Positions 4,901-55,459 of a DNA stretch of 64,000 nt are shown piece by piece. Below the pieces are notes generated by a model. The model made no database searches. It had not been told where the DNA came from and was given only the letters and a program-made list of their open reading frames with translations. This DNA is from Negaprion brevirostris. Lineage: Eukaryota. The stretch spans positions 80,588,220 to 80,652,219 of the forward strand of contig JARDVH010000073.1 of the NCBI GenBank assembly GCA_030324005.1, given 5' to 3'. The stretch's first letter is position 1; every line of letters starts with the position of its first letter. The translations under genes and the position numbers were made by a program.

Positions 4901-7900
4901 GCAGCCTAAAATGGACACAGACCTATTACTGTACAACATTACATGGAAATTATATGCATCAAATAGCATGGAGATAACTGGAATGAAAGGGTTTTTTTCC
5001 ATATTGACCAAGAACACTATTTCCACAAACTGAATATTACTCAAAGAGAGTCTGGATAAAACTTAAAAAAAGGGAAGTATTCACTTACAATCCAAGAGAC
5101 TTTGAATATAACAGCAGCATTAATCACAATGACATTGTCAGCTTTCAAAACCATGCTAACACAAGACCACAGGCTCACATGCTTCCATGCAGCACTACTA
5201 CAAAATTATCAGCCCAAAATTAACACAAACTATTAGTGTGGATTTTATATCATATGGATCATCTGAACAGATTTCCTTGTTCTGAAATGATAAGTGTAAT
5301 TGCAGCAAATTTGAAAAAAAATCCATTATAATATTTAGATAACATGACTTGAGTAGGAGTTAGTTTGCTTCATATTTACCAATTGCAGTTTAACTTGCAG
5401 AAACTTTCAATAATCTCAACCTCCTTATATCTTGGATAAATTATTCAGTTACCTTACTGTGAGTAGAAGCTGTCAATATCAGTACCCAATACTTCTGGGC
5501 CAATTCTATCTGGAGTCCTTGCTAAGGCTATGGGAGAACCATATTATTCAGCAACATTGGACCTTACTGCACAGATTCTGACACATATACAAAGACATAC
5601 ACATACACACACTTCTGCTATGCAGTGAAGGAAGGAAAACAGTCACTATTCAACAAGCAAAGGCAGAGACAGATTAGTCATTATTAGAATATATAGGTGT
5701 CCAATGACTCAGAGCATGAGTGACAGCACGCAATGGAGAGAGAGAGGAGGCAAGACAGTCAGAGTGAGGCTAAACAGGAAGTGAATGGAGCAGATGTTAG
5801 GATCAAACAATTAGCAACTACCAACGCCAGTGCTGTAAAGGGGATTTGATGTTAGTTGGCATAGCTTTTGTTAAGGCAGTGGAAAATCTGGGTCTGAAAG
5901 TACAGTCTGTAAGCAAAGCAATTCCTTAAACAGGGTGGGAAAAGACACAAAAGAGATAAGAAAGACTGAGGAAGAACAAAATTGAAGAATCTCAAACATA
6001 GAAACAGACAGTTGCAGCCATACTGCAGCAGCAAGTACTGGAAGCCAATTAACAGTTCACTGTTAACCACAAATAACACGGACAGCTGGAAGGAGAAGCT
6101 ACAAATAAAAAGACAGGATTGAGCAAAGAGTTTCTTGGAGAACTTTAACATCGGCCAGACATACAGTTCACAGACAGCTTGAGGGATAAACAAATATTGT
6201 GATCCTGAACCCAAGATATCTGCAGGAAACATTGCTTTTCAATACAAGATGAAGACAGACCCATATTAGACTTGTATTCTGATAGATTGAATGAAACTGA
6301 TCAATGAGGTAAAATAAATCTAATAACTTTGCTCACCCTACAAATAAAAAATTATCCAATAATAAATAAATGCTTGAAACATACATAAATACTGGTTGGA
6401 GAAACTTAATTAGAAAGCTTATGGCCTTTTAGCTGATGTATAAATTACCACAGAAATCTGTAGGGAGTAAACAAGCTGAGTTATCAGAAACAGTATCAAT
6501 GCTATAAAATGCAGTCTTATTTCATTTAAGCTCCTTTATACTGTCAATATAAAGAACAAGTTGCTTCACAATGAAATAATATCATCATTGTTTTTTAGGT
6601 TAACTGTCTGGGTGTAGTTAACCTCAACATTAAAATCAATTCTCCACTTACAATCGCCATTCTTGACATTGAAATCCAGAGCAATTTATGATAAAAAATA
6701 CCTTGCTCTCTGTCTATGCTCTACGCTGATTTGCTAATCAAAATGAAGGGTCGATAAAGAACGAGCCATATTTAATACTCTATTAACCAAAAAGTACATT
6801 GAAAGAATACCTGCTGCCAATGGATGTCGGTAGCATCAATCGGTCCTGAAGCTCTAATCTATATACTACACACTGAATAACAGACAGCTGCTATGGTACT
6901 AGACATTGGATGACGGGGATCTGCTATTCTGTTATGAGCAGAATAACAATATAAACTGGGAATATGTTTCATACATGGAACAAAAATAGCACCATATTAC
7001 TCACAGGGGGAAGGATAGCGAAAAGGCAGAAATATGAAAGACAATAACACAAAGGTTTCAGAAGATGTCATGAACTGTAAGATGTGAATGGATTCATACT
7101 CTGTGCTTTTTTGTTGAAGTTGTGCACAGATATGCATGTCATTTTGTGAATGTCCATAGTGAAGGAAAGAGACTATACTGACCCCATGAGCAGAATTACA
7201 TAGCCAAGAAGACCTGTTGTTTCCTATTTATATTTATTGAACTGAAGTATTACAGAGAAGGAATTCCATTCCCTGGTTAAGGAACCTTGGTAATCTGGTC
7301 TATAGAGCCCAGGCAATTCACTTCTATCAGTACTTATATTTAATTATTTCTGTTTGGTCTTAATTGAATTCTATTAGCCATACATTTGAAAAAGAGTATT
7401 CTTAGTGCTCTTATCTCATTGGCGTATACGCCCCAAATATGGGTATCATTTTAAAATACATACATATATATGTCACTAAAGGTACAGATATTCCTGTATA
7501 AGGAGAAGAATGATCCTGTGTACATTTGGGATACATACTGGGTTCTATATATTTTACACACAATATAGAAATCAACTAGATTAAAGGATGCTGTGACAGT
7601 GGTTCTCTCTCAGGGTCTGCTTACTTGGCTTGCAAATCATATGATCAGCAAGAACTTGGATTTACACATTGTTTTCTTACATCCACAAAATGTTCAAAAG
7701 CATTTTGCAATTGTGTGTTTAGAAATGCAATCCTGGGTGTCATATAGGCAATGTAGCCATCAGCGATTTTTATTATCTTAAAATTTGTAAGTTAGTTAAA
7801 AGACAGATTTCATAATGGAGTTCTGGAACTATATCAAATGAGGAGAAACCCAATGCTGACCTGCATGATTATGACAGATTAAAAGTCCCACTGACATCTT

Positions 7901-8534
7901 GGCAAGTCTGAACTGAATTAAACAGCGAACTAGGAGGTGCAGACCAGTTTTATCAGTTAATTCTCCTGGTTGCCTTTGACATATAAACACAGTGATAAAA
8001 ACACAATACCAAACACACCATTTCACTACCTTGCATGGACAGATACACCAGTCTCACTGCAAACATTGGGTCCGATTCTTCAACCTCGTTCACAGTTAGG
8101 ATTCTCCCGTCTTGCTGCAGTGAACGGAGATGTGACTGAGTGCCAAATTCTCTGACTTCGCTGGCAGTGGTGATGGGGCATGAACAGCTGGAGAATTTTG
8201 GCTATTGTGTCAGATAAACTGGCCAATGAAAAGTACTAACTGGGTTTTAAAAGGCTGTAAATTGGAGGAGGAAAGAAAGACAGATGGCCTTAAGGAGTTT
8301 TTCCTGTTCTAAGATCCTGAGAATGAATGAATTAGAAAATGAAATAACGTGATGCATATTTGTTTGAAAATAGTGAGAATTCAGAAATGAGGGGGAGAGT
8401 ACAGATAGCATATTGTAGTTCACATGCAGCAAGGGCAGAGATTACGATTTAAGCAGTATCAAATGGCCAGGAAACTTGCAGTCAGTGGTGAAGGAATGGC
8501 ATTTGCCATTCACTACGCTGACTATTGTAGCATC

Positions 8535-23532: not shown

Positions 23533-23655
23533 CTTTTGTCTGACTGCATGCCTTGGTTTTGTTGGCTGTTGCTGGTCTGTAGATCAGGAATATTTGCAAA
23601 GTCATCTTGTTCTGTCAAACCCATAACCAGGGAAAGGACCACCATCCGACCTTCA
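23533..23655 (-). CDS. SYT7: Synaptotagmin-7 linker exon (123 nt, phase 2/2)
   Basis: Encodes EGRMVVLSLVMGLTEQDDFANIPDLQTSNSQQNQGMQSDK(R), near-identical to SYT7 EGRMVVLSLVLGLSEQDDFANIPDLQNPGTQQNQNAQGDKR. Acceptor is ttcttCAG (23656-23658) and donor is GTATGA. It joins the upstream exon in frame (CT|T = Leu). Confidence 0.96.
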
Positions 23656-33858: not shown

Positions 33859-34879
33859 TGGTTATATAAGAATTGCAAAAGAAGGCAGCAATGAAAGATA
33901 GGTTTTCTGCAGCCCAGAAACATGAGGGAAGGAAGGCAGATGGACCACATAAACAATGGAATCGCCTCTGGTTGCAAACTACCCCTTTGGTCCTCTAATC
34001 CATGGAGATCCCCTATTGTCCAAGATAATAAGCTGCTTATGGTATTTAAAACTAGCAGAGATCAGTGAATGGCTGCTAAAAGGTTAGACTCTTAGTAAAG
34101 TACTGAGTTTCTGATCAGAACCAATTGCAATGATACTTGCTAATTTTTAAACTGATGCAAGTTCTATCTCATCCACAGTTTGAAGATGGACAGGCAACTC
34201 AGTAGCAACAATTGATCTAAGGTTAACTGAGAACTAAAAATGATTACAGAGAGCTTACATTTCTGAACAATCCTATTCTTTTCAATTGTGCTCAGGAGAA
34301 ATTTGTAGATCAGCAAATTTCTGACCTAATGAGAAAAGGATTGGATTCTGGGAACAAGGCAGGTCGAATTGATGAAATGTCAGTAGGGGAATGTGGATGG
34401 AACAGTACAATTTTAATTATTGACGGAAAAAGTTAAGCAGTAACCTGGAGTGAAAATATTTAGTTGGAGGAAAGCCAATTTCAGATGGTTGAGAATGGAT
34501 CTGTTCCAGGTAAAATAGAATCAAAGACTGGGAGGCAAAACTGCAACTGAAAAATGGGTTGCCTTCATTGAAGAGATTGTTTGGAGGAGGAAAAGTAGAA
34601 TAATTAAAGCCAGTGCTCTCTGGATGATGCAAGAGAAAGATGAAGCAGACAAAAAAAGCCATATGACAGATGTCAGATTGCAAATGCATGCAAGACCAGT
34701 TTGACTACAGAAAGATCAGAGCGAAAAAGGAAATAAAAACAACAAAGAGGCCGGAATTCACTGGCATGCCCACCCCAGTCCTGGGGGTGGGCGAGGCTTG
34801 GAGAACAACATTCTCTGTTGGCCTCAGGCAGGATCGTACCAACCTTGAGCAGAAGCGCCGATAAAATTCCACCCACAGA

Positions 34880-36590
34880 GTATGAGAAGACACTGGAAGT
34901 TAATGTAAAAAAGAAATCCAAAGTATTCTATAGACTAATAGTCAAAGTGCTGTGACAGGATGGCTAGGGGCTGAGATCTATGCATGGAAGCAGGGAGCAT
35001 GGCTGAGGACAAATTAACTAGGTACTTTGCACCTGATTTTGTCAAGAAAGATGATGTNNNNNNNNNNNNNNNNNNNNNNNNNNNNNNNNNNNNNNNNNNN
35101 NNNNNNNNNNNNNNNNNNNNNNNNNNNNNNNNNNNNNNNNNNNNNNNNNNNNNNNNNCGTAATCAGTCAAGAAGTAGGTAACTGAGATATTGGATGGGTT
35201 ACAATTTGATAAAAAGATGTCAAAAAGGCTGGTTGTACTTAACATTGTCCATTCTCAGCAGGACTGGGCCAGATATATCGAAAAACTTTGAGAGAAGTGA
35301 GAATGGAAATTGTGCAGGTACTGGTCAAAATCTTCAATCTTCTTCAGATATGGGAATGGTGCCAGCGGATTGGAGGATTGCAAATGTTACTTCCTTGTTT
35401 AAAGGGTAAACCCAGCAATTATAAGCTAGTTCATTTAACCTCGGTGGTGGGCAAGTTTTTGGATAAGATAATCTAGGAAAAGATTAACAACCAATTGGAC
35501 AAGGCTGGATTAATTAAGAGAAGCCAGCATACATGTGTTCAAGGCAAATTATGTTTCACCAATTAAATTGAGTTTTTTGATGAGGGAACAGAGAGGATTG
35601 ATAAGGGTAATACAGTTGATGTGGTGTATCTGAACTTCCAAAAGGTATTTGATATAGTACCACGTAATAGACTTTCAGCAATTGAAGCCCATAGAATGAA
35701 AGGGACAATGGCAGCACGGATGAGCTGGCTGAATGACAGAATACAGAGTGACGGTGAACAGTTATTGATCAGATGAAGATGTAAAATGGTGCTCACCATA
35801 GTTCAGTACTAAGACTGCTGCTTTTTAAAATATATATCAATGAGCTAGACTTGGGTGTACGGGACACAATTTGAAAATTTGCAGGTGACACAAACTTGGA
35901 AGTATTGTGCTCTGCAATGAGGATAATGATAGCCTTCACAAGGAAATAAATGGGTTCACAGAATCAATGGACACATGACAGATGCACATTAATAAAGAAA
36001 AATCTGAAGTGTTACATTTTGATAGGAGGAACAAAGAGAAAATATAAACTAAAAGGTACAACTGTAAAGGGAGTGCAGTAACAGAGCGACCTGGGGCATA
36101 TATGCATACGTCTTTAAAGCTTGCAGCAGAGAGCCTGGTTGACGCAGTTGGTAGTTCTCCTGCCTGCAAGGCAGAAGGTCCTGAATCTGAGGGTTTGAAT
36201 GTAACTCAGGAATGCGTTGGCCACAGAAGAACTCAGTCACTGTTGCAAGTGCGCTTGCAAGCCCTCGTGCCAGTCCCCAGCCTGAATAAAGGGTTTGAGA
36301 GGTATGTGGCTGTAAAATCACCCATAAAATACAAAAAAACTGACAATGAACGGTGATCAATCAGCATTGTGGCGACATTATATAACATGGGAAAAGGTGG
36401 AACAAACAAATAAGTTGAAGGGCAGGATGTAAAAGGGTTGTAGAAAGCCTCACAGATGCCTAGACTTTATGCGTAGAGTGCAAAAGCAAAGAAATTGTGA
36501 TGAACCTTTATAAAACATCAGTTCAATCTCAATTGCAGCATTACATCCAAATTTGGGTACTGCAATTTAGGAAGGATGTGAAAGCTTTTT
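34880..36590 (+). mobile_element. Old CR1 LINE ORF2 fragments, interrupted
   Basis: VPADWRIANVTSLFKG, KPSNYKLVHLTSVVGKFL and MMNLYKTSVQSQLQHYIQIW..FRKDV, with many stops. Confidence 0.8.
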
Positions 36591-36864
36591 TTTCAAAAAA
36601 GGCAATTCATCCTGACTCCCAATGTTCATGGATCCTTGAAAACATTTCAGGTTCTGGATCTGCATCCTGCCAAAAACTAAGCAGTTCTTCCTTGCGCTCT
36701 GCCCTGTCTTTGTACCAAATTTCACTGAAATCCATCCATTAGTTTTTGAGATGTATTGTTTACAGATTTGCATGCTAATAGACTGATGAATGGGGGAGAA
36801 AACATTACCATCACCCACTTTAAGTGTCACATTGTAAAAGCCTTTACAGGGGCAGGATAAATTA

Positions 36865-37400
36865 CAATGGATTTAAGGAAATGTCAGAAACATTAAATAC
36901 ATTTCTTTTATCTATATTCACAGCAGAAGATACAAAGGGTGTACCAGAAATTGTAGGAAACCAAGAGTCTTTTGAAATTGAGCAACTTAAAAGTAACTAA
37001 TACAGGGAAATAAATTATTGGGATTAAAACCCAACAAGTCTCCTGAATTTCATAACCTTCATTCTCAGGTCTTAAAAGAGGAAGCTACAGATATAGTGGA
37101 TGCATTGCTTTTGAACATGCAGAATTCTTTAGATTTTGGAACAGTCTTCATGGCTTGGATGGAGGCAAATGTTAATACCACTGTTGAAGAAAAGAGGGCA
37201 TGTAAAAATGGAAACGATTGATTAGTTAGCCTGACGCCGTTAGCAGAAAAGAAGCTAGAACCTATTATTAGGAATGTGGCAACAGGGCACCTATCGCCAA
37301 TCAAATTATGATTTCCTGAGTTAACATAGTTTTATGAAAGGTGAATAGTGTTTTATAGAATTATTAGAGTATTTGAGGGTGATGCCACACTTCAAGAATT
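36865..37400 (+). mobile_element. Old CR1 LINE ORF2 fragment
   Basis: EMSETLNTF..SIFTAED and GLKPNKSPEFHNLHSQVLKEEATDIVDAL..QNSLDFGTV..W.EANV. Confidence 0.8.
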
Positions 37401-37449
37401 TAAAATAGGAAAAATTAAGCAAGATGTTCTCAAGTTTTGCCTGTGGCCC

Positions 37450-37760
37450 AGATAGAGCTGCCATATTTATAACAAGGTGCTTGAGAAAGGCTTTCTCTGC
37501 CTGTTCAACTGGATATAAAAGATTCATAGCATTCCTCAAAAGAAAGAGTATTTTGGTCAAAATTTCTCCCTCAACTATTACTATCAAACATTAATTAACT
37601 GTGCATTCATCTTATTTGCTGTTTGTGGCACTGTTTTGTGCTGACACTGGCTACTAGACTCACCAGCAATGGTGAGATTTTTAAAACCACTTAATTGATC
37701 ATTTACTGCCCTTGGGGTGCCCTGAGGATATGGAAGACATCAAGAAAATCATTACGATTA
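37450..37760 (+). mobile_element. Deu-domain SINE remnant
   Basis: ggatataaaagattcatagcatt...aaatttctccctcaac...atttgctgtttgtggcactg, the reverse-orientation relative of 25835-26140. Confidence 0.5.
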
Positions 37761-38884
37761 AATTTTCTCAGGGGTCATCATGTTTGAAGTTATATCGACA
37801 CATGCAAAATATTGCATCTTGTCATGTGCTATTGCTGCTGCTTCTCTGATATTTGATTAAAGTTCCTTGCCACCCATTCATATTTTTCTTGGTTGGGGAT
37901 ATTTTCTATCTTCCAGCATGATTGTCTTGTTCTCTGTCCTTGCTCCCTCTGGCTAAAATGTCACCTAGAACTGAGTTTTGTTTCTTTAATTTGAACATCA
38001 TGGTTCTCTCTCTCTCTCTCTCTGTGAATATAGATAAAATAAATTTATTTAATGTTTGTCATTTCCTTAAATGCCATTATAATTTATCTTGCCTCTGTAC
38101 AGGCTCTTACAATGTGCCACTTAAAGTGGCTGATGGTAATGTTTTCTCCCTTGTTCATCAGTCTGTTAGCATGTAAACAATATATCTCAAAAACTAATGG
38201 ATGGATTTCAGTGAAATGTGGTACAAGGACAGAGCATAGCCCAAGGGAGAACTGCTTATTTTTGGCAGAGATGCAGATCCAGATACTGAAATGTTTTTCA
38301 AGGGTCCATCAACATTGGGAGTCAGGATGAACTGACTTTTCTTTAAAAAAAAGGAATATTGTGGATTGTTTTATTTAAGATGTTATTATTTGTTTTAAAA
38401 CTTTGTCGATTGTCTCTGCTGCTGAGATGGAATTTGTTACAGCTGTTAAAACATGAGCAGAATTTTCAGAACAGGTTGTTGAATGTGGCTTGGCCTGAAG
38501 CTCTCTTAGTGAAAAAGCTCTTAAAAAAATACATTTTTAGACCTGTATGAGATGGAGATGCCGGCATTGCACTGGGATGGGCACTGTAAGAAGTCTGACA
38601 ACACTAGGTTAAAATCTAACAGGTTTATCTGGAATCATGAGCTTTTGGAATACTGCCCCTTCAGCAGGTCAGACTCATCTCTATCAATTTGCTGTTGTCC
38701 ATTGCTCATATGTACACACATGCTTGCATGTGCACAATCCTATTAGGCTGGCATCATTTTGTTTCTTCTTTTAATTTAATTCCAGCCTTCGCTTCTCTAG
38801 TTAGCCATGGTTGGATCATATTTTCTGGGAGAATTTAAAATTCCTTGAGGAAATGTATCTTCATTCAACATTGTGAATTATTTT

Positions 38885-40023
38885 AGGTGGAATCTTCCCA
38901 GAAATTGGCCAATGACAATGAAGGCTTTTTCTGCCATATTGTGCAGCATTTGTTTAAAGAATGCAGAGGTATGGATTTTCTGGCAGATCACTGGTGGAGT
39001 GACCTCTGATTCACATGCCCTCTAATAACTTCATAGCTTCAGTAATGTGGGCACTACGCTTAAAGGCCACCTCTGCACAGAGGTAATACTCCAAGGAATA
39101 GGAAGCCGCTGGGAGCTGATAGCTGCCAAAGCCAAGAAACATGCTGCCCTCACATTTAGCAATGCCTCCCTTGTGCATCTACTAGAAGCAGTGTCCTAGA
39201 ACCTTGCTCTGGACAAGACCAGCAAGCAATGTCACCAATCCAACATGGAAGGTATTGGTAGTGATGGTGGTCAGTGCAAACGCCCTCCAAAAGAGGACAG
39301 CTATGCAGTGCCAAAACAGGACGTATGACCTCCCCATTCTGCAGAGTAAGTCACTCTTTTTATAAATTTCAACTCACACACTCATCACACATCCTCAGGA
39401 ATCTCATTCACTGCCAGCTCAAGGGTCATTATCACTCACTCTCACATAAATATCACCACTTCCCTTGCAGGTAATCTCCTCATCCTTTGCAATGGCCTCA
39501 CTCACCAACCATCATCTGGCCTGGCAAGTGTCCTACCTGCACTGTCTCCATTTTTCTTCACAAATGGACAACTGGCAGAAAACAAAAGGGAGAGGTCCCA
39601 GACTGATGGAGAAATGATGAAACTCAAGGTCCTGACAATTCAGCTAGCTGGTGAGGATGTACACTGTTCTTGTGCTAATGGTGAAGTCAGTGGCGCTCAA
39701 CAAAGTGAGGATCCTGCACTGTAACATCCATCAGACAATCATACTGTGTGTGATCTCTCCTGTTTCACAGGGTCCTGCTATCCCTAATGATTTCTCCTTT
39801 CCTTCACAAGGACAGCCGGGAAGCATCCAAGGCGTTTACGAACCAGATCCTGGACTCCAGCCTCAATGATACCATAGAAGCCAAAAGCACTGACAGTGAC
39901 ATTGTTGACCTTTCATCAACGCAGCCACACACACCTCATTGGGACTTATTTCTACAGTAGCCTCTGAGTCACGATCTGATGAGCACATCATACTGTCTGA
40001 CCCACAGCAGGTGGAAGCAGGGA
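38885..40023 (+). mobile_element. PIF/Harbinger transposon remnant, Myb/SANT DNA-binding protein pseudogene (5' part)
   Basis: From 39119: AAKAKKHAALTFSNASLVHLLEAV* ... NPTWKVLVVMVVSANALQKRTAMQCQNRTYDL, then GTAAGT at 39346, and later LAENKRERSQTDGEMMKLKVLT. This is the pattern of Harbinger Myb-like (NAIF1/MSANTD-type) proteins. GGTGGAATCTTCCC at ~38885 resembles a Harbinger terminal repeat. Confidence 0.7.
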
Positions 40024-41585
40024 CATAGAAACATAGAAAAATTACAGCACAAACAGGCCCTTCGGCCAACAAGTTGCGCCGAACGTGTCCCTACCTACTA
40101 GGCTTACCTATAACCCTCAGTCCTATTAAGTTCCATGTACTTATCCAAACGTCTGTTAAAAGACCCTATTGAATCTGCCTCCACCACCACTGCCGGCAGC
40201 CGATTCCACACACCCACCACCCTCAGTGAAAAACTTACCCCTGACATCTCCTCTGTACCTATTCCCCAGCACCCTAAACCTGTATTCTCTTGTGGCAACC
40301 ATTTCAGCTCTGGGAAAAAGCCTCAGAATCCACTTGATCAATACCTCTCAACATCTTATGCACCTCTATCAGGTCACCTTTCACCCTTCATCTGTCCAAG
40401 GAGAAAAGACCGAATTCTCTCAACCTGTCCTCATAAGGCACGCCACCCAATCCTTGTAAATCTCCTCTGCACCCTTTCTATGGCTTTCACATCCTTTCTG
40501 TAATGAGGTGACCAGAACTGAGCGCAGTACTCCAAGTGGGGTCTGACCAGGGTCTTATACAGCTGCAGCACTATCTCCCAATTCCTAAACTCAATTCCTC
40601 TATTTATGAATACCAGTACACCATACGCCTTCTTAACTACAGCTTCTACCTGCAAAGCTGCTTTGGGCGTCCTATGAACCCAGACCCCAAGATACTTCTG
40701 ATTTTCCACACTGCCAAGAGTCTTACTCTTAACATTATATTCTGTCATCCTATTTGACCTGCCAGAATGACTCACCACATGTCCATCTGCCACTTCTCCG
40801 CCCAGTCTTGCATCCTATCAATGTCTCATTGCAACTTCTGACATCCCTCCACACTATCCACAACACCTCCAACCTTTGTGTCATCAGCAAACTTACCAAC
40901 CCATCCTCCACTTCCTCATCCAGGTCATTTATAAAACTCACAAAGAGCAAGGGTCCCAGAACCTGGGGCACTCCACAGATGACCGACCTCCATGCAGAAA
41001 AAGACCCATCTTCAACCACTCTTTGCCTTCTGTGGGCAAGCCAGTTCTGAATCCACAAAGCAATGTCCCCTTAGATCCCATGCCCCCTTACTTTCTCAAT
41101 AAGCCTTCCATGGGGCACCTTATCAAAACACTTTGCTGAAGTCCATATATACTACATCTACTGCTGTTCCTTCATCAATGTGTTTAGACACATTCTGAAA
41201 AAATTCAATCAGACTCGTAAGGCATTATCTGCCTTTGACAAAGCCATACCGACTATTCTTGATCATACTATACCTCTCCAAATATTCATAAATCCTGCCT
41301 CTCAGGATCTTCTCCATCGACTTACAACCACTGAGGTTAGACTCACCGGTCTATAATTTCCTGGGCTATCTCTTCTCCCTTTCTTGAATAAAGGAACCAT
41401 ATCCACAATCCTCCAATCCTCCGGAACCCCTCCCATCTCATGGATGACACAAAGATCATCGCCAGAGACTCAGCAATCTCCTCCCTCGCCTCCCATAGTA
41501 ACCTGCGGTACATCCCATCCGGTCCCGGCGACTTATCTAACTTGATGCTTTTCAAAAGCTCCAACACATCCTCTTCCTTAATATC
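40024..41585 (-). mobile_element. CR1/HER1-type LINE, 5'-truncated ORF2 RT plus 3' tail
   Basis: Peptides KLDKSPGPDGMY..LLWEAREEIAESL, WIQNWLAHRRQRVV..WRSVICGVPQ.LGPLLFVSFINDLDE and LQLYKTLVRPHLEYCAQFWSPHYRKDV. A (TTCTATG)n-type tail sits at 40024-40038. Confidence 0.95.
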
Positions 41586-41599
41586 TGACTGGCAACTGT

Positions 41600-41872
41600 C
41601 TAGCCCAACTGCGTTCACTGTCTCTCGTCTTCCATCTCTGAGCTCTTTGTAGTACAACTGCAATCGCTCTCTCTTGCCACCTAGGCTGAGCTCTCCTTTT
41701 CGCTCTCCAAGCTTTTCATGTCCAACTGTTCTTGCTCTCTCTCGCCACTTGAGCTGAGCTCTCATCTTCCCTCTCTATGCTCTTTGTAGCCCCACTGCTC
41801 TCACAGTTTACCTTCCCTCTCTTTGCTCGCTGTAGCCCCACTGCGCTAGCTGTCTCTCATCTTCCCTCTACA
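41600..41872. repeat. Degenerate pyrimidine-rich tandem repeat (~45-65 bp units)
   Basis: Recurrent ctctcatcttccctct, ctttgtagccccactgc and gctgagctctc motifs. Confidence 0.7.
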
Positions 41873-42980
41873 AGATGCACTCAGCAACTCACTAATACTC
41901 CTCCAACCGTACCATCCAAACCAGTGACCTCTACCACCTAAAAGGACAAGGGCAGCAGAAGAATGGTAATACCACTACCTGCAAGTTCTCCTCTAAGCCA
42001 CAACCATCCTTACTTGGAACTATATTATTGTTTCTTCACTGTCACTGGGTCAAAATTAAGGAACTTCCTCCTTAAAAAACACTGTGGGAGATGTTACTGC
42101 ACTGGTTCAAGGCAGCAGCTCACTGTCACCTTCTGAAGGGCAATTAAGGGAAAAAAGCATTGGCCTTGCCAGCAATGCCCCCATCCCATGAACATTTTTT
42201 TAAAATCAAGAAACAGGGGCAATATACAAGTTTAAATATGACCATATATCTTCTGGTTGGCAGGAGAAACCTCTTTACAAAATTAAGAGACTGTGCAATT
42301 CACTTGCAGGATTTGTGGAAGAGGCAGAAGTAATCAACATTCAAGAACAGGTTTATAGATGAAGGAAAAGGGGCACATGGAAATCATTCAGAATATCTGC
42401 CCACATGGAAGTTTAGTACTGACATGAACAGTTTCTATTTCAAATAGGTTCTGTCTCTATTTTGTAATGTCCTTGCATTTTTATATGCATCATTTGAAGA
42501 CACTAAGAATGATGGATGTGGGAAATGGAAATATAATGGAAACATGTCATTCTGGCCAGTGAGAGGTTTTATTTCGATAATGGACAGAACTTCAAGCAGG
42601 TACTTGAGGTCCATTATGATGGAGACTGACAAAGTGAGTATGCTCCAAAAAATTCAGCATGCTCTAGGAAAAGCAAAGACAGTATTATTAATCGCTGTGT
42701 TGACAACTGGAATAGGTGTCATCTGAAAGAATTCAAACAGTATTGCATAGCCACTCGTGCCCTCAAATTTCTACAATCTCTCATAGTGCTAGGAGAATGT
42801 GGATACTGGGAATGAAACATTTTCTTCAATAGTTGTCTTGTCCCAGCATTAGGGGAGCAGTAATTGTCTCAAGTTTGTGTTGGTCTTGGAACTGATCTTA
42901 GAACCTCTTAATCACCGGACAGAAAGTAGAACAAAATTCTAGATCTTTTGGCATGAACACAAGAGTAAAAATGCACTTAC

Positions 42981-43125
42981 TGTTCCTTGTTCCAGTAGGA
43001 GCTGGCATTTGCTGAGACATTCTGGGCTCTCAGTGAGCTCAATCAAGGCTTTTTCCGCTTGTAATCGCTGGGCTGGATCTGTGGCCTCATAAAGTTGCTT
43101 GCATACTATTTCCAATTGTGCCAAA
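42981..43125 (-). CDS. RANBP17: RANBP17 / exportin-7 family exon 2 (importin-beta N-terminal region), 5' end lost in N gap
   Basis: Encodes [48 protein letters not shown] followed by a GTAAGT donor (42975-42980, phase 0). The C-terminal half [16 protein letters not shown] fits RANBP17 better than XPO7 ([16 protein letters not shown]). No stops or frameshifts. Paralog assignment is less certain than the family assignment. Confidence 0.85.
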
Positions 43126-43225
43126 NNNNNNNNNNNNNNNNNNNNNNNNNNNNNNNNNNNNNNNNNNNNNNNNNNNNNNNNNNNNNNNNNNNNNNNNNNN
43201 NNNNNNNNNNNNNNNNNNNNNNNNN

Positions 43226-43900
43226 TTGCAAGGCATGATGGAGTCTGTCCACCTTCAGTCTGAAATGTTAGTGCTGATGTGCCATCACAATAAGGTCAAC
43301 ACTGGTAGGATGGTGACCACTGTGGAGATCTTGGTCCAGGACATCAGTCCAGCACTGCCGCAGGAGTTACACTCATTGCCAAGATATTTGCTGGCATCCA
43401 TCAGTGTCGACTCAAGAGGGGGCAGGGAAATTCAAATTCACTCAATGCCTTCGGCATCCATAGGGAGGAGGGTCAGCAGGTGTACACTCCAGGGCCATTC
43501 ACCCAAGTGATTGCAGGATTGTCTGCCCCATCCAAATCCCCTCTTCCTGTGAGCCTATCATCTCCAGCTCCACAAGCCAACACAGATAGCACTGCCACAC
43601 AGCAGAACATAAAAGCAGGCTGGGGCCCTAGAGATCTCAGCCTTAAAGGTCATCACAGATAACAGGGTGTAGCAATCAGCAGATTGCCTCCACCTCCACT
43701 GTGGATGTTGAGGATGCACAAAGACACAGCGGCAGAAAGGTCAAGAAGGAGTAGTTGCACCGCATGGGCACAGATGCTAATCAGCTTACATATTGAGTTG
43801 ACCATTATAAATACACACCCAAGAATGTCTCCTTGTCTATGGCTTCTTGTTATGATGAATCGTGTTCATGTTAGTCAGGTGTGAAACCTTGGTCCCTGCT
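43226..43900 (+). mobile_element. Probable 3' continuation of the Harbinger Myb-like gene remnant
   Basis: Reads LQGMMESVHLQSEMLVLMCHHNKVNTGRMVTTVEILVQDISPAL followed by a Pro/Ser-rich tail. Same strand and composition as the part ending at 40023. Recognised from recalled resemblance, not from an alignment. Confidence 0.55.
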
Positions 43901-45879
43901 CAAAATGAAGGCAAGTTTCAAAGTCTAGGTTCTTTCCTCTGTGCAGTGTGTTATGATGATGTGGAGATGCTTGCGTTGGACTGGGGTAAACACAGTAAGA
44001 AGTCTTGACTCCTTACAATGTGTAATGAGCATAGTGATTGTTCTGCCTCAGTCACTCTCCCAATCAGTGATGCTTGCACCTCGATGTGGCTTGTGTTTGC
44101 TACAAGGATCTTGTACCCAAGTGTCACAGGGTTCCTTGATGTCCTATATTTGCTCACATAATAACTATTTTAATATTGCCCCTGTTTTGAAAAGATTTAT
44201 TCACCTCCATCTCAGAACAGCATCCCACCCACACTAGTAAATGTTGTAACTTCTAAATCTCCACATCAACCAGCCGACTGGCTTTGTTTGTGGAGTCAGC
44301 AATCCTGCCCTAGTATTTGTTAAATTATGGGCAGTGTTTCTTTCTGTTTGCTACCCACTTATGCCAAGAAGAAATCCAGTGAAGGCTATCTCTAATTAAG
44401 AAGCTATTAGTCTGATTGGATTTAATTTCAGAAAGTGAAAAGATAAGTGTTCCAAAACATAGCATGATTCTATCTTGTAGCTGCTTTATTGAAAATAAAC
44501 TGTGTTTTCCTCCTCGACACCACTGCTGGTTTCCAGTGGAGATTTTTAAAAGAAACATATTACTTTATTTCAGTGAAATTACAGAAAATTGGAGAGAATT
44601 AATGACAGAAGAAATTCTAAACAAAACAAATTGCTTGTTCTTGTCCCGCCCATCCAGAATAATCCTATTCTCACCCAACACATTCCTCCTATTGTAGAAT
44701 ATAATTGTTGCTTGAACAAATCTCTATATTTTATGATGCATACTAATAGAATTGATTTAATCTGTTTAAGAAATGGGCAACAATGGTAGTTCTTATTTAA
44801 GCAATGTTAAGTAAGATGATGCACAACTCCTCATTCTTGTTTGGCATAAATGTGATTGTTGTTTCCTGAGTGTCTTATAAAAAGAAAATGCAGATAAAGG
44901 GTATAACTAAGTAAAAATCTGAATGTTTAGAGAAAATTTCCTTTCAAGAAGGCTTATTGATAGTCTAATCAGTTGCATGTCTGTGGGAGTTTGTGGATGC
45001 AGCCTTATTAATACAACAGAATAAACACCATTGCTCAGGAGAACAAGAGCAGATGGGTAACAGAATATAAATAATCTGATTATAATTTGTGGTGGTTCAA
45101 AAATTATATTTTATGTTATTTTGTTTTTCTGCAATAAGTTCACACGTTCAGAAAATGAAGTGAACCCGGCCTTATTTATGGCTCCTTCACATGCTTTGTA
45201 ATTCAATATTCTGCTTAACCTGTCAACTCAGTCAGGGCTCCATAAATAGAATGCAACATATCATCCTGGATATACAACTGGAAGAAATAAAACAAAATAG
45301 TATGCCAGGTTTATTTACAGCACAACAGAAAAGCATAAAATAAACACATTCATTGAACCAAGGAAAGGTTCCAGCACAGTCTCATACAGGTTCAGGCAGT
45401 GGTCAAAATTTAACCTCAAATCGTCTCTTCCATGAAAGTGTTTAATCTCAAATGAAAAATGTTTGATTTACTCTGATGGTCTGTTCCATTGAATACTTTG
45501 AAACTTAAACTGAGGGATCCTGCAGCTATCAACATGAACTGCCTGTTCCATGTCATGGTTTCATTGAAAGCAACAGGCAAAAATCACAAATGGTCTCCTC
45601 TTCAAATACTTTCATCTCAATAAATCTTCCAATTCTCCAGAGCATAGTCAGTGTTTTGGATTTAGACTCGCCATTTTTTCAAAGCTTCTCCTTGAAACGT
45701 TTTCCTTGGTTAGTTTGTTACCATTTTAGGTAACACTTTCAGGATTTTCGCTTAATTGTCCCTTATCCTCTCTATGTTATGAGGGGAAATATGCTTTTCA
45801 GTCATATTGGTTAAATAATTGAACTGTTGGAGGCGATCCTGTTTATTTTAGAAAGAAACTTCCATTATAGCATCTTGAA

Positions 45880-55096: not shown

Positions 55097-55459
55097 AGGA
55101 AAGACTTCATATCTAACCCTCGATTACGGAGCTGTCCCATCACGTAATCCCAGCTCCCAGGATTGGAGCGGCTACGGCCTCCAGCTGTACGATTGCGTGA
55201 GCCCGCCATACCACTTGGCCTGTGCTGGGCTCTGTAGGGAGACCTGCTGCCGGAGGTTGTCTGCTGTTGGAATTGAAGCTGCCCAAGGCTCTGGCTGGTG
55301 GTGGGTTGGCTCTGGGCAGGTCTATGGTGCTGCAGCGGCTGCTGCAGGCTCTGCTGCCTCTGCAGCGTCCGAGGTCGCGGGCATTTCGACTGTTGGTCAC
55401 CTGGTGGCGTAGATATGTGCTCTAATGTGGACGCTGCTGATAAGGTCGGCTCATCCAAG
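55097..55459 (-). CDS. SYT7: Synaptotagmin-7 alternatively spliced linker exon (363 nt, phase 2/2)
   Basis: Encodes LDEPTLSAASTLEHI...KCPRPRTLQRQQSLQQPL...SQPTTSQSLGQLQ...AGGRSRSNPGSWDYVMGQLRNRGLDMKSF(L), matching the long-isoform SYT7 linker (mammalian RSRSNPGSWDHVVGQIRNRGLDMKSFL). A long polypyrimidine tract and TAG acceptor lie at 55460-55462 and a GTAAGT donor at 55091-55096. Length is divisible by 3. Confidence 0.95.

Follow-up and report, generated by a model that had tools for sequence, protein, structure and literature searches.

A RANBP17 exon inside a SYT7 intron of Negaprion brevirostris is in all likelihood an artefact of a chimeric contig joined through two LINE copies

The window (the whole 64,000-nucleotide stretch of DNA that was analysed) carries exon 2 of RANBP17 between two exons of SYT7. 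The exon itself is real, an ordinary exon 2 of RANBP17, and its placement within SYT7 is very probably not genuine. In all likelihood, the exon came to stand in the SYT7 intron as an artefact of a chimeric contig, formed through two copies of a LINE. The features of the locus, in window coordinates, are the following.

23533 to 23655, minus strand: SYT7 exon downstream of the host intron, amino acids 302-343 of P0122
38900 to 40026, plus strand: left part of an old dispersed repeat, assigned to the SYT7 intron and cut by the LINE tail
40023 to 41586, minus strand: 5'-truncated LINE with its 3' tail at 40023-40040, the likely site of the chimeric join
41587 to 42980, minus strand: putative 5' part of RANBP17 intron 2, including an old repeat at 41864-42206
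42975 to 42980, minus strand: splice donor GTAAGT of RANBP17 exon 2, read in the window and used in an RNA-type contig of run X19
42981 to 43125, minus strand: 145 nt of the 147-nt RANBP17 exon 2 (its first two bases fall in the gap), phase 0-0, the only copy in the assembly
43126 to 43225, no strand: gap of 100 N, adjoining the exon and bridged by no contig of runs X2, X3 or X7
43226 to 43950, plus strand: right part of the old dispersed repeat, with about 150 nt missing before 43226
55097 to 55459, minus strand: SYT7 exon upstream of the host intron, amino acids 181-302 of P0122, ending in phase 2

Translation of positions 43124 to 42981 (minus strand) gives a stop-free peptide of 48 residues, followed by the donor at 42980-42975, which confirms the stop-free 48-codon exon of the exportin-7 family, with its GTAAGT donor, that the initial annotation had described. 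That annotation had named the exon RANBP17/exportin-7 exon 2; the family stood, and the choice of member that it had left undecided falls on RANBP17 specifically, with XPO7 exon 2 being found on scaffold C167. The peptide shows 94-96% identity to shark 'RANBP17-like' proteins versus 73-77% to XPO7. Compared with 16 shark RANBP17 models, 44 to 47 of the 48 residues are identical, and in the case of several shark RANBP17 proteins the match of 47 residues leaves a single I-to-V change, which is common to the compared sequencing runs (no difference is listed there). Past position 43125, DNA contigs of runs X2 and X3 provide two more exon bases, the AG acceptor, and a pyrimidine tract. Because these contigs show the acceptor and the two further bases, the full size of the exon is 147 nt, or 49 codons, and its first codon is GAT (Asp); the AGT start assumed earlier was wrong. 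An Asp residue is found at the start of the exon in all the shark models that carry it (16 of the 19 examined). The exon thus has a canonical acceptor (in the X2 and X3 contigs) and a canonical donor (in the window). A Pfam search of the exon alone named no domain, and a PDB search gave no relative.

The host SYT7 intron is of phase 2 and measures 31.4 kb as assembled, and at this locus all 12 SYT7 matches lie in order on scaffold C73. The exon was rightly described as lying between two SYT7 exons on the same strand (55459-55097 and 23655-23533, all minus), and the statement that a phase-0 exon sits in a phase-2 intron also holds. A hypothetical splice of SYT7 into the exon would read CTG ATT TGG CAC AAT TGG AAA TAG (read by hand); the poison-exon frame proposed earlier keeps its stop after six further codons, and its GTT codon is replaced by ATT. 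No other RANBP17 or XPO7 exon was found in the window by tBLASTn with three shark RANBP17 proteins and one XPO7 protein, in agreement with the reported absence of further RANBP17 exons.

In the assembly, the exon DNA has one match genome-wide, which is the window itself. The exon protein has two, namely the window exon and XPO7 exon 2 on C167 (all three candidates were scored). The full-length search with P0003, which used a stricter first look and may have missed weak matches, gave 42 matches: 22 on scaffold C110 (in order), 16 on C167 (XPO7), 2 on C1, 1 on C150, and 1 in the window. The body of RANBP17 is located on C110 at 8.268-8.964 Mb, where the first exon present is exon 3. RANBP17 on C110 looks functional, because all 20 stretches aligned to P0250 are free of stops, and as such it needs exon 2. 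The 330 kb of C110 that surround exon 3, with 98 gaps and 91,954 N (28% N), contain neither exon 2 nor the unique intron next to it (the intron part at 41587-42980 has no match there). RANBP17 exon 1 was found neither in these 330 kb nor by one pattern search. The contig carrying the exon, compared by BLAST with 200 kb of C110, shows repeat matches only and no overlap at its ends. Neither flank of the gap can be placed, since the assembly contains, at up to two mismatches, neither the 30 letters past 43125 nor the 30 that precede 43226. The earlier proposal that part of the true RANBP17 locus has been misplaced is therefore supported: exon 2 is missing at C110, and the assembly holds no second copy.

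Upstream of RANBP17 exon 3 on C110, at a distance of 136 kb, there is an SH2 exon of the BLNK/SLP-76 family. It fits the gene block LCP2-KCNIP1-GABRP-RANBP17-TLX3 described in the accessible part of PMC2446394, with LCP2 as its candidate identity. A large Kazald-like exon with a hydrophobic N-terminus and IGFBP and Kazal domains (C110:8149907-8150656, plus strand) is located between the SH2 exon and RANBP17.

The contig that carries the exon extends from 35158 to 43125 and has 100-N gaps at both ends. Its sequence passes from the left part of the old dispersed repeat into the LINE, whose tail stands at the cut of the repeat with a 4-nt overlap. In other copies of the old repeat, the left and right parts are collinear (20 of 29; the spacer, measured from 40020, has a median length of 155 nt), and the other 9 were without a collinear left part under the rule applied. 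The 30 letters of X7 before 43226 align to the end of this spacer, with 18-26 of 30 letters identical in 12 of 13 copies, compared with about 11 at random places. Because the other copies are collinear and the loose end of X7 matches the last portion of the missing stretch, the stretches 38900-40026 and 43226-43950 appear to be two parts of one repeat copy in the SYT7 intron. By eye, this repeat looks like a Harbinger relic encoding Myb/SANT, which we take as its presumable origin; Pfam named neither the LINE fragments nor the old-repeat fragments of the window.

The LINE presumably belongs to the CR1 clade. Its family comprises 18,568 candidate copies in the genome, the best scored of which are 83-93% identical, and related copies carry RT and endonuclease domains. 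Beyond the truncated end of the LINE, the contig runs 1.4 kb to the RANBP17 donor with no return to the old repeat, and the foreign block thus spans at least 41587-43125 and at most 40027-43125 (1.5-3.1 kb). One X3 contig covers 42260-43125 and, judged by its length, reaches about 41931.

Two further observations concern repeats elsewhere in the window. Degraded LINE-like sequence is present at 34860-35700, on both sides of the gap at 35058-35157; the by-eye impression of a LINE running across this gap was dropped, as none of the fetched copies bridged it. Broken frames are found at 10098-9439 (minus strand), which by eye we assume to be the relic of a retrotransposon integrase.

The arrangement at the exon is best explained by a chimeric contig. 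Coming from the SYT7 intron, the assembler would have run into one LINE copy and emerged from another member of that family, located in RANBP17 intron 2. The place of the contig in the scaffold would then have been fixed by its longer, SYT7-derived portion (35158-40026), and the RANBP17 overhang of 1.5-3.1 kb would have been taken along and closed off by the 100-N gap. The copy switch, the anchoring and the gap closure are what we infer, because no contig or read crosses the LINE in the compared runs, all of which consist of short contigs that break at repeats. The true order of the SYT7 intron would be the left repeat part, the LINE, and the right repeat part, and exon 2 would belong in one of the large gaps that precede exon 3 on C110. 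A high-copy repeat at the junction and host sequence resuming after the block are both present. On C110, 2 of 55 contigs, at 13 and 32 kb before exon 3, start with the 3' end of the LINE family (88-89%) in sense orientation, and both directly follow large gaps (5,240 N and 8,551 N). As candidates for the true continuation they are suggestive only.

Among the points that weigh against the chimera is that the LINE shows no visible change from one copy to another: along its whole length it departs from the family majority at 2-10 positions per 100 nt, the nearest copy and the divergence stay constant, and the longest exact match to any of the 29 copies compared is 69 nt. Another is the orientation, which would equally be expected from 5' transduction. 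In such an event, an unspliced RANBP17 transcript with a sense LINE in intron 2 would have been reverse-transcribed from the 3' tail into the SYT7 intron. This origin is very unlikely, and so to the same degree is the outcome it would carry for SYT7, a frameshifting poison exon with both splice sites, whose parent copy is hidden in a gap. The LINE tail located exactly at the cut of the old repeat, and the exon, intron and LINE all lying in the sense of SYT7, are consistent with it, and the 28% N of the C110 region could hide the parent copy. However, transduction needs two copies, and no second or variant copy was found in the assembly. Runs X2, X3 and X7 each show one listed contig over the exon (reaching 211, 760 and 283 nt past 43125, respectively). 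The contig depth, a weak measure which does not give a copy number, was counted as not above that of the SYT7 flank in X1 (3.1-6.5 for the block vs 4.5-8.3), X3 (18.7 vs 16.5) and X7 (6.4-7.0 vs 13.1), and as about equal in X2 (2.5-4.9 vs 3.6).

The other side of the gap also argues against transduction. The contigs at 43226 extend toward the gap by 192, 204 and 204 nt (X2, X3 and X7, respectively), and those of X3 and X7 therefore start at the same place, about 50 nt past the cut point of the repeat; this shared start suggests that a high-copy repeat is present there, and not the unique RANBP17 intron 1. No joint between the 43125 side and the 43226 side was seen in X2, X3 and X7 among 24 of the 26 pieces listed; the second junction of a transduction would lie in this same unbridged gap. 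Run X1 alone is identical to the window; it has no listed contig over 43005-43125, and such a hole proves nothing. The divergence of X3 is 1/145 in the exon versus 16/721 in the intron, which is not significant (P = 0.33). In addition, 5' transduction is called very rare in the accessible part of PMC8232201.

Still less probable is another artefact, in which the whole gap-bounded contig 35158-43125 would be a RANBP17 intron misplaced by the scaffolder. The 100-N gaps at both of its ends resemble those around the stranded XPO7 exons on C1 described below. Against this, the repeat at 38900-40026 resumes at 43226 with the expected spacer, and a misplaced contig would not supply the matching half. 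The earlier reading of the exon as a misplaced piece stood, with a mechanism other than the one that the gap would suggest: in place of a whole gap-bounded contig, the piece appears to be a block fused to real SYT7 intron inside the LINE.

Transcript-like contigs bear on the partner of the exon. The RNA-type label of these runs is a guess, and the contigs come from relatives; a search for RNA runs of the species itself with this stretch found none listed. The contigs of two relatives coincide with 42981-43125 at both edges, differ from it at 1 and 2 positions, and continue with other letters. In X19, the exon-2 donor is joined to an AG acceptor that is found once in the genome, on the unplaced contig C18554 (single-copy, 1,571 nt). 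The acceptor exon extends from 671 downward on the minus strand, shows a stop after 23 codons, and has 1 mismatch in 30 between the species; it is probably an alternative exon within RANBP17 intron 2, of the poison or the terminal kind. The partner letters are not in the window, and the junction leads neither to exon 3 on C110 nor to a SYT7 exon. Inspection of the junction partners of the donor, which had been recommended initially, thus gave no link to SYT7, the single junction read (X19) going to C18554. For the same reason, exon 2 is not tied directly to C110, as this junction does not lead to exon 3. The Chiloscyllium RANBP17 model P0002 has 21 additional residues inserted between exons 2 and 3, a possible intron-2 exon, with no match to C18554.

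The least probable of the explanations is a DNA rearrangement in which ectopic LINE-LINE recombination would have moved the 5' end of RANBP17 into SYT7 and left a split or interleaved gene: such a crossover yields the same left junction, and a truncated gene might also account for the X19 contig, in which a stop-containing exon follows exon 2, but the return to the same old repeat at 43226 requires a second, non-LINE junction in the gap, the RANBP17 exons on C110 are intact with the SYT7 matches in order on C73, and exon 2 is joined to exon 3 in the shark models that rest on long contigs.

In this assembly, exons are often stranded away from their genes. Three others of the exportin-7 family have a normal sequence, and each is located near 100-N gaps:

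C150:38754230-38754367, plus strand: RANBP17 exon, residues 883-928, intact, missing from the expected 60 kb of C110
C1:156269059-156267223, minus strand: XPO7 exons 3 and 4, enclosed by two 100-N gaps, missing from the XPO7 locus on C167

With four exons of two exportin-7-family genes placed on wrong scaffolds, orphan exons, exon losses and nested genes in this assembly need checking for this reason. SYT7 and RANBP17 themselves look like ordinary shark genes, and the biological weight of the arrangement is most likely none. The split-repeat comparison can map such joins without reads. Transduction, if true, would stand as one of the rare instances in which a LINE carries an exon, together with its two splice sites, from one gene to another. 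A literature search on RANBP17 with shark or poison exon returned nothing on this locus.

In respect to known sequences, the shark 'ran-binding protein 17-like' RefSeq models (XP_078405859.1, XP_078087613.1, XP_072369022.1) are alike in 47 of the 48 residues, in the exon ends and in the first Asp; they differ from the window in the I-to-V change and in having the exon joined to exon 3. The paralogous XPO7 exon 2 of the same genome (C167:9282564-9282707) is 73% identical and has the same length and phase, but it starts with AGC (Ser) and, unlike the window exon, sits in its own gene. The 5' transduction of non-LTR retrotransposons, as described in the accessible part of PMC8232201, is similar in that upstream host sequence is joined to the LINE and the 3' tail marks the insertion point, whereas it leaves a parent copy, and none was found for exon 2 here. 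Assembly errors of the proposed kind have precedents in the accessible part of a VGP preprint (bioRxiv 10.1101/2020.05.22.110833), which gives 5,000-8,000 mis-joins in the short-read assemblies of one bird, and in which a VTG2 scaffold is placed in a Calpain-13 intron in the old platypus assembly and later corrected with long reads. As far as that part of the source goes, the platypus case is like the present one, with part of a gene missing at its home locus and turning up, in a fragmented assembly, within an unrelated gene's intron; the difference is that there a scaffold was misplaced and then corrected by long reads, whereas here the join would lie inside a LINE.
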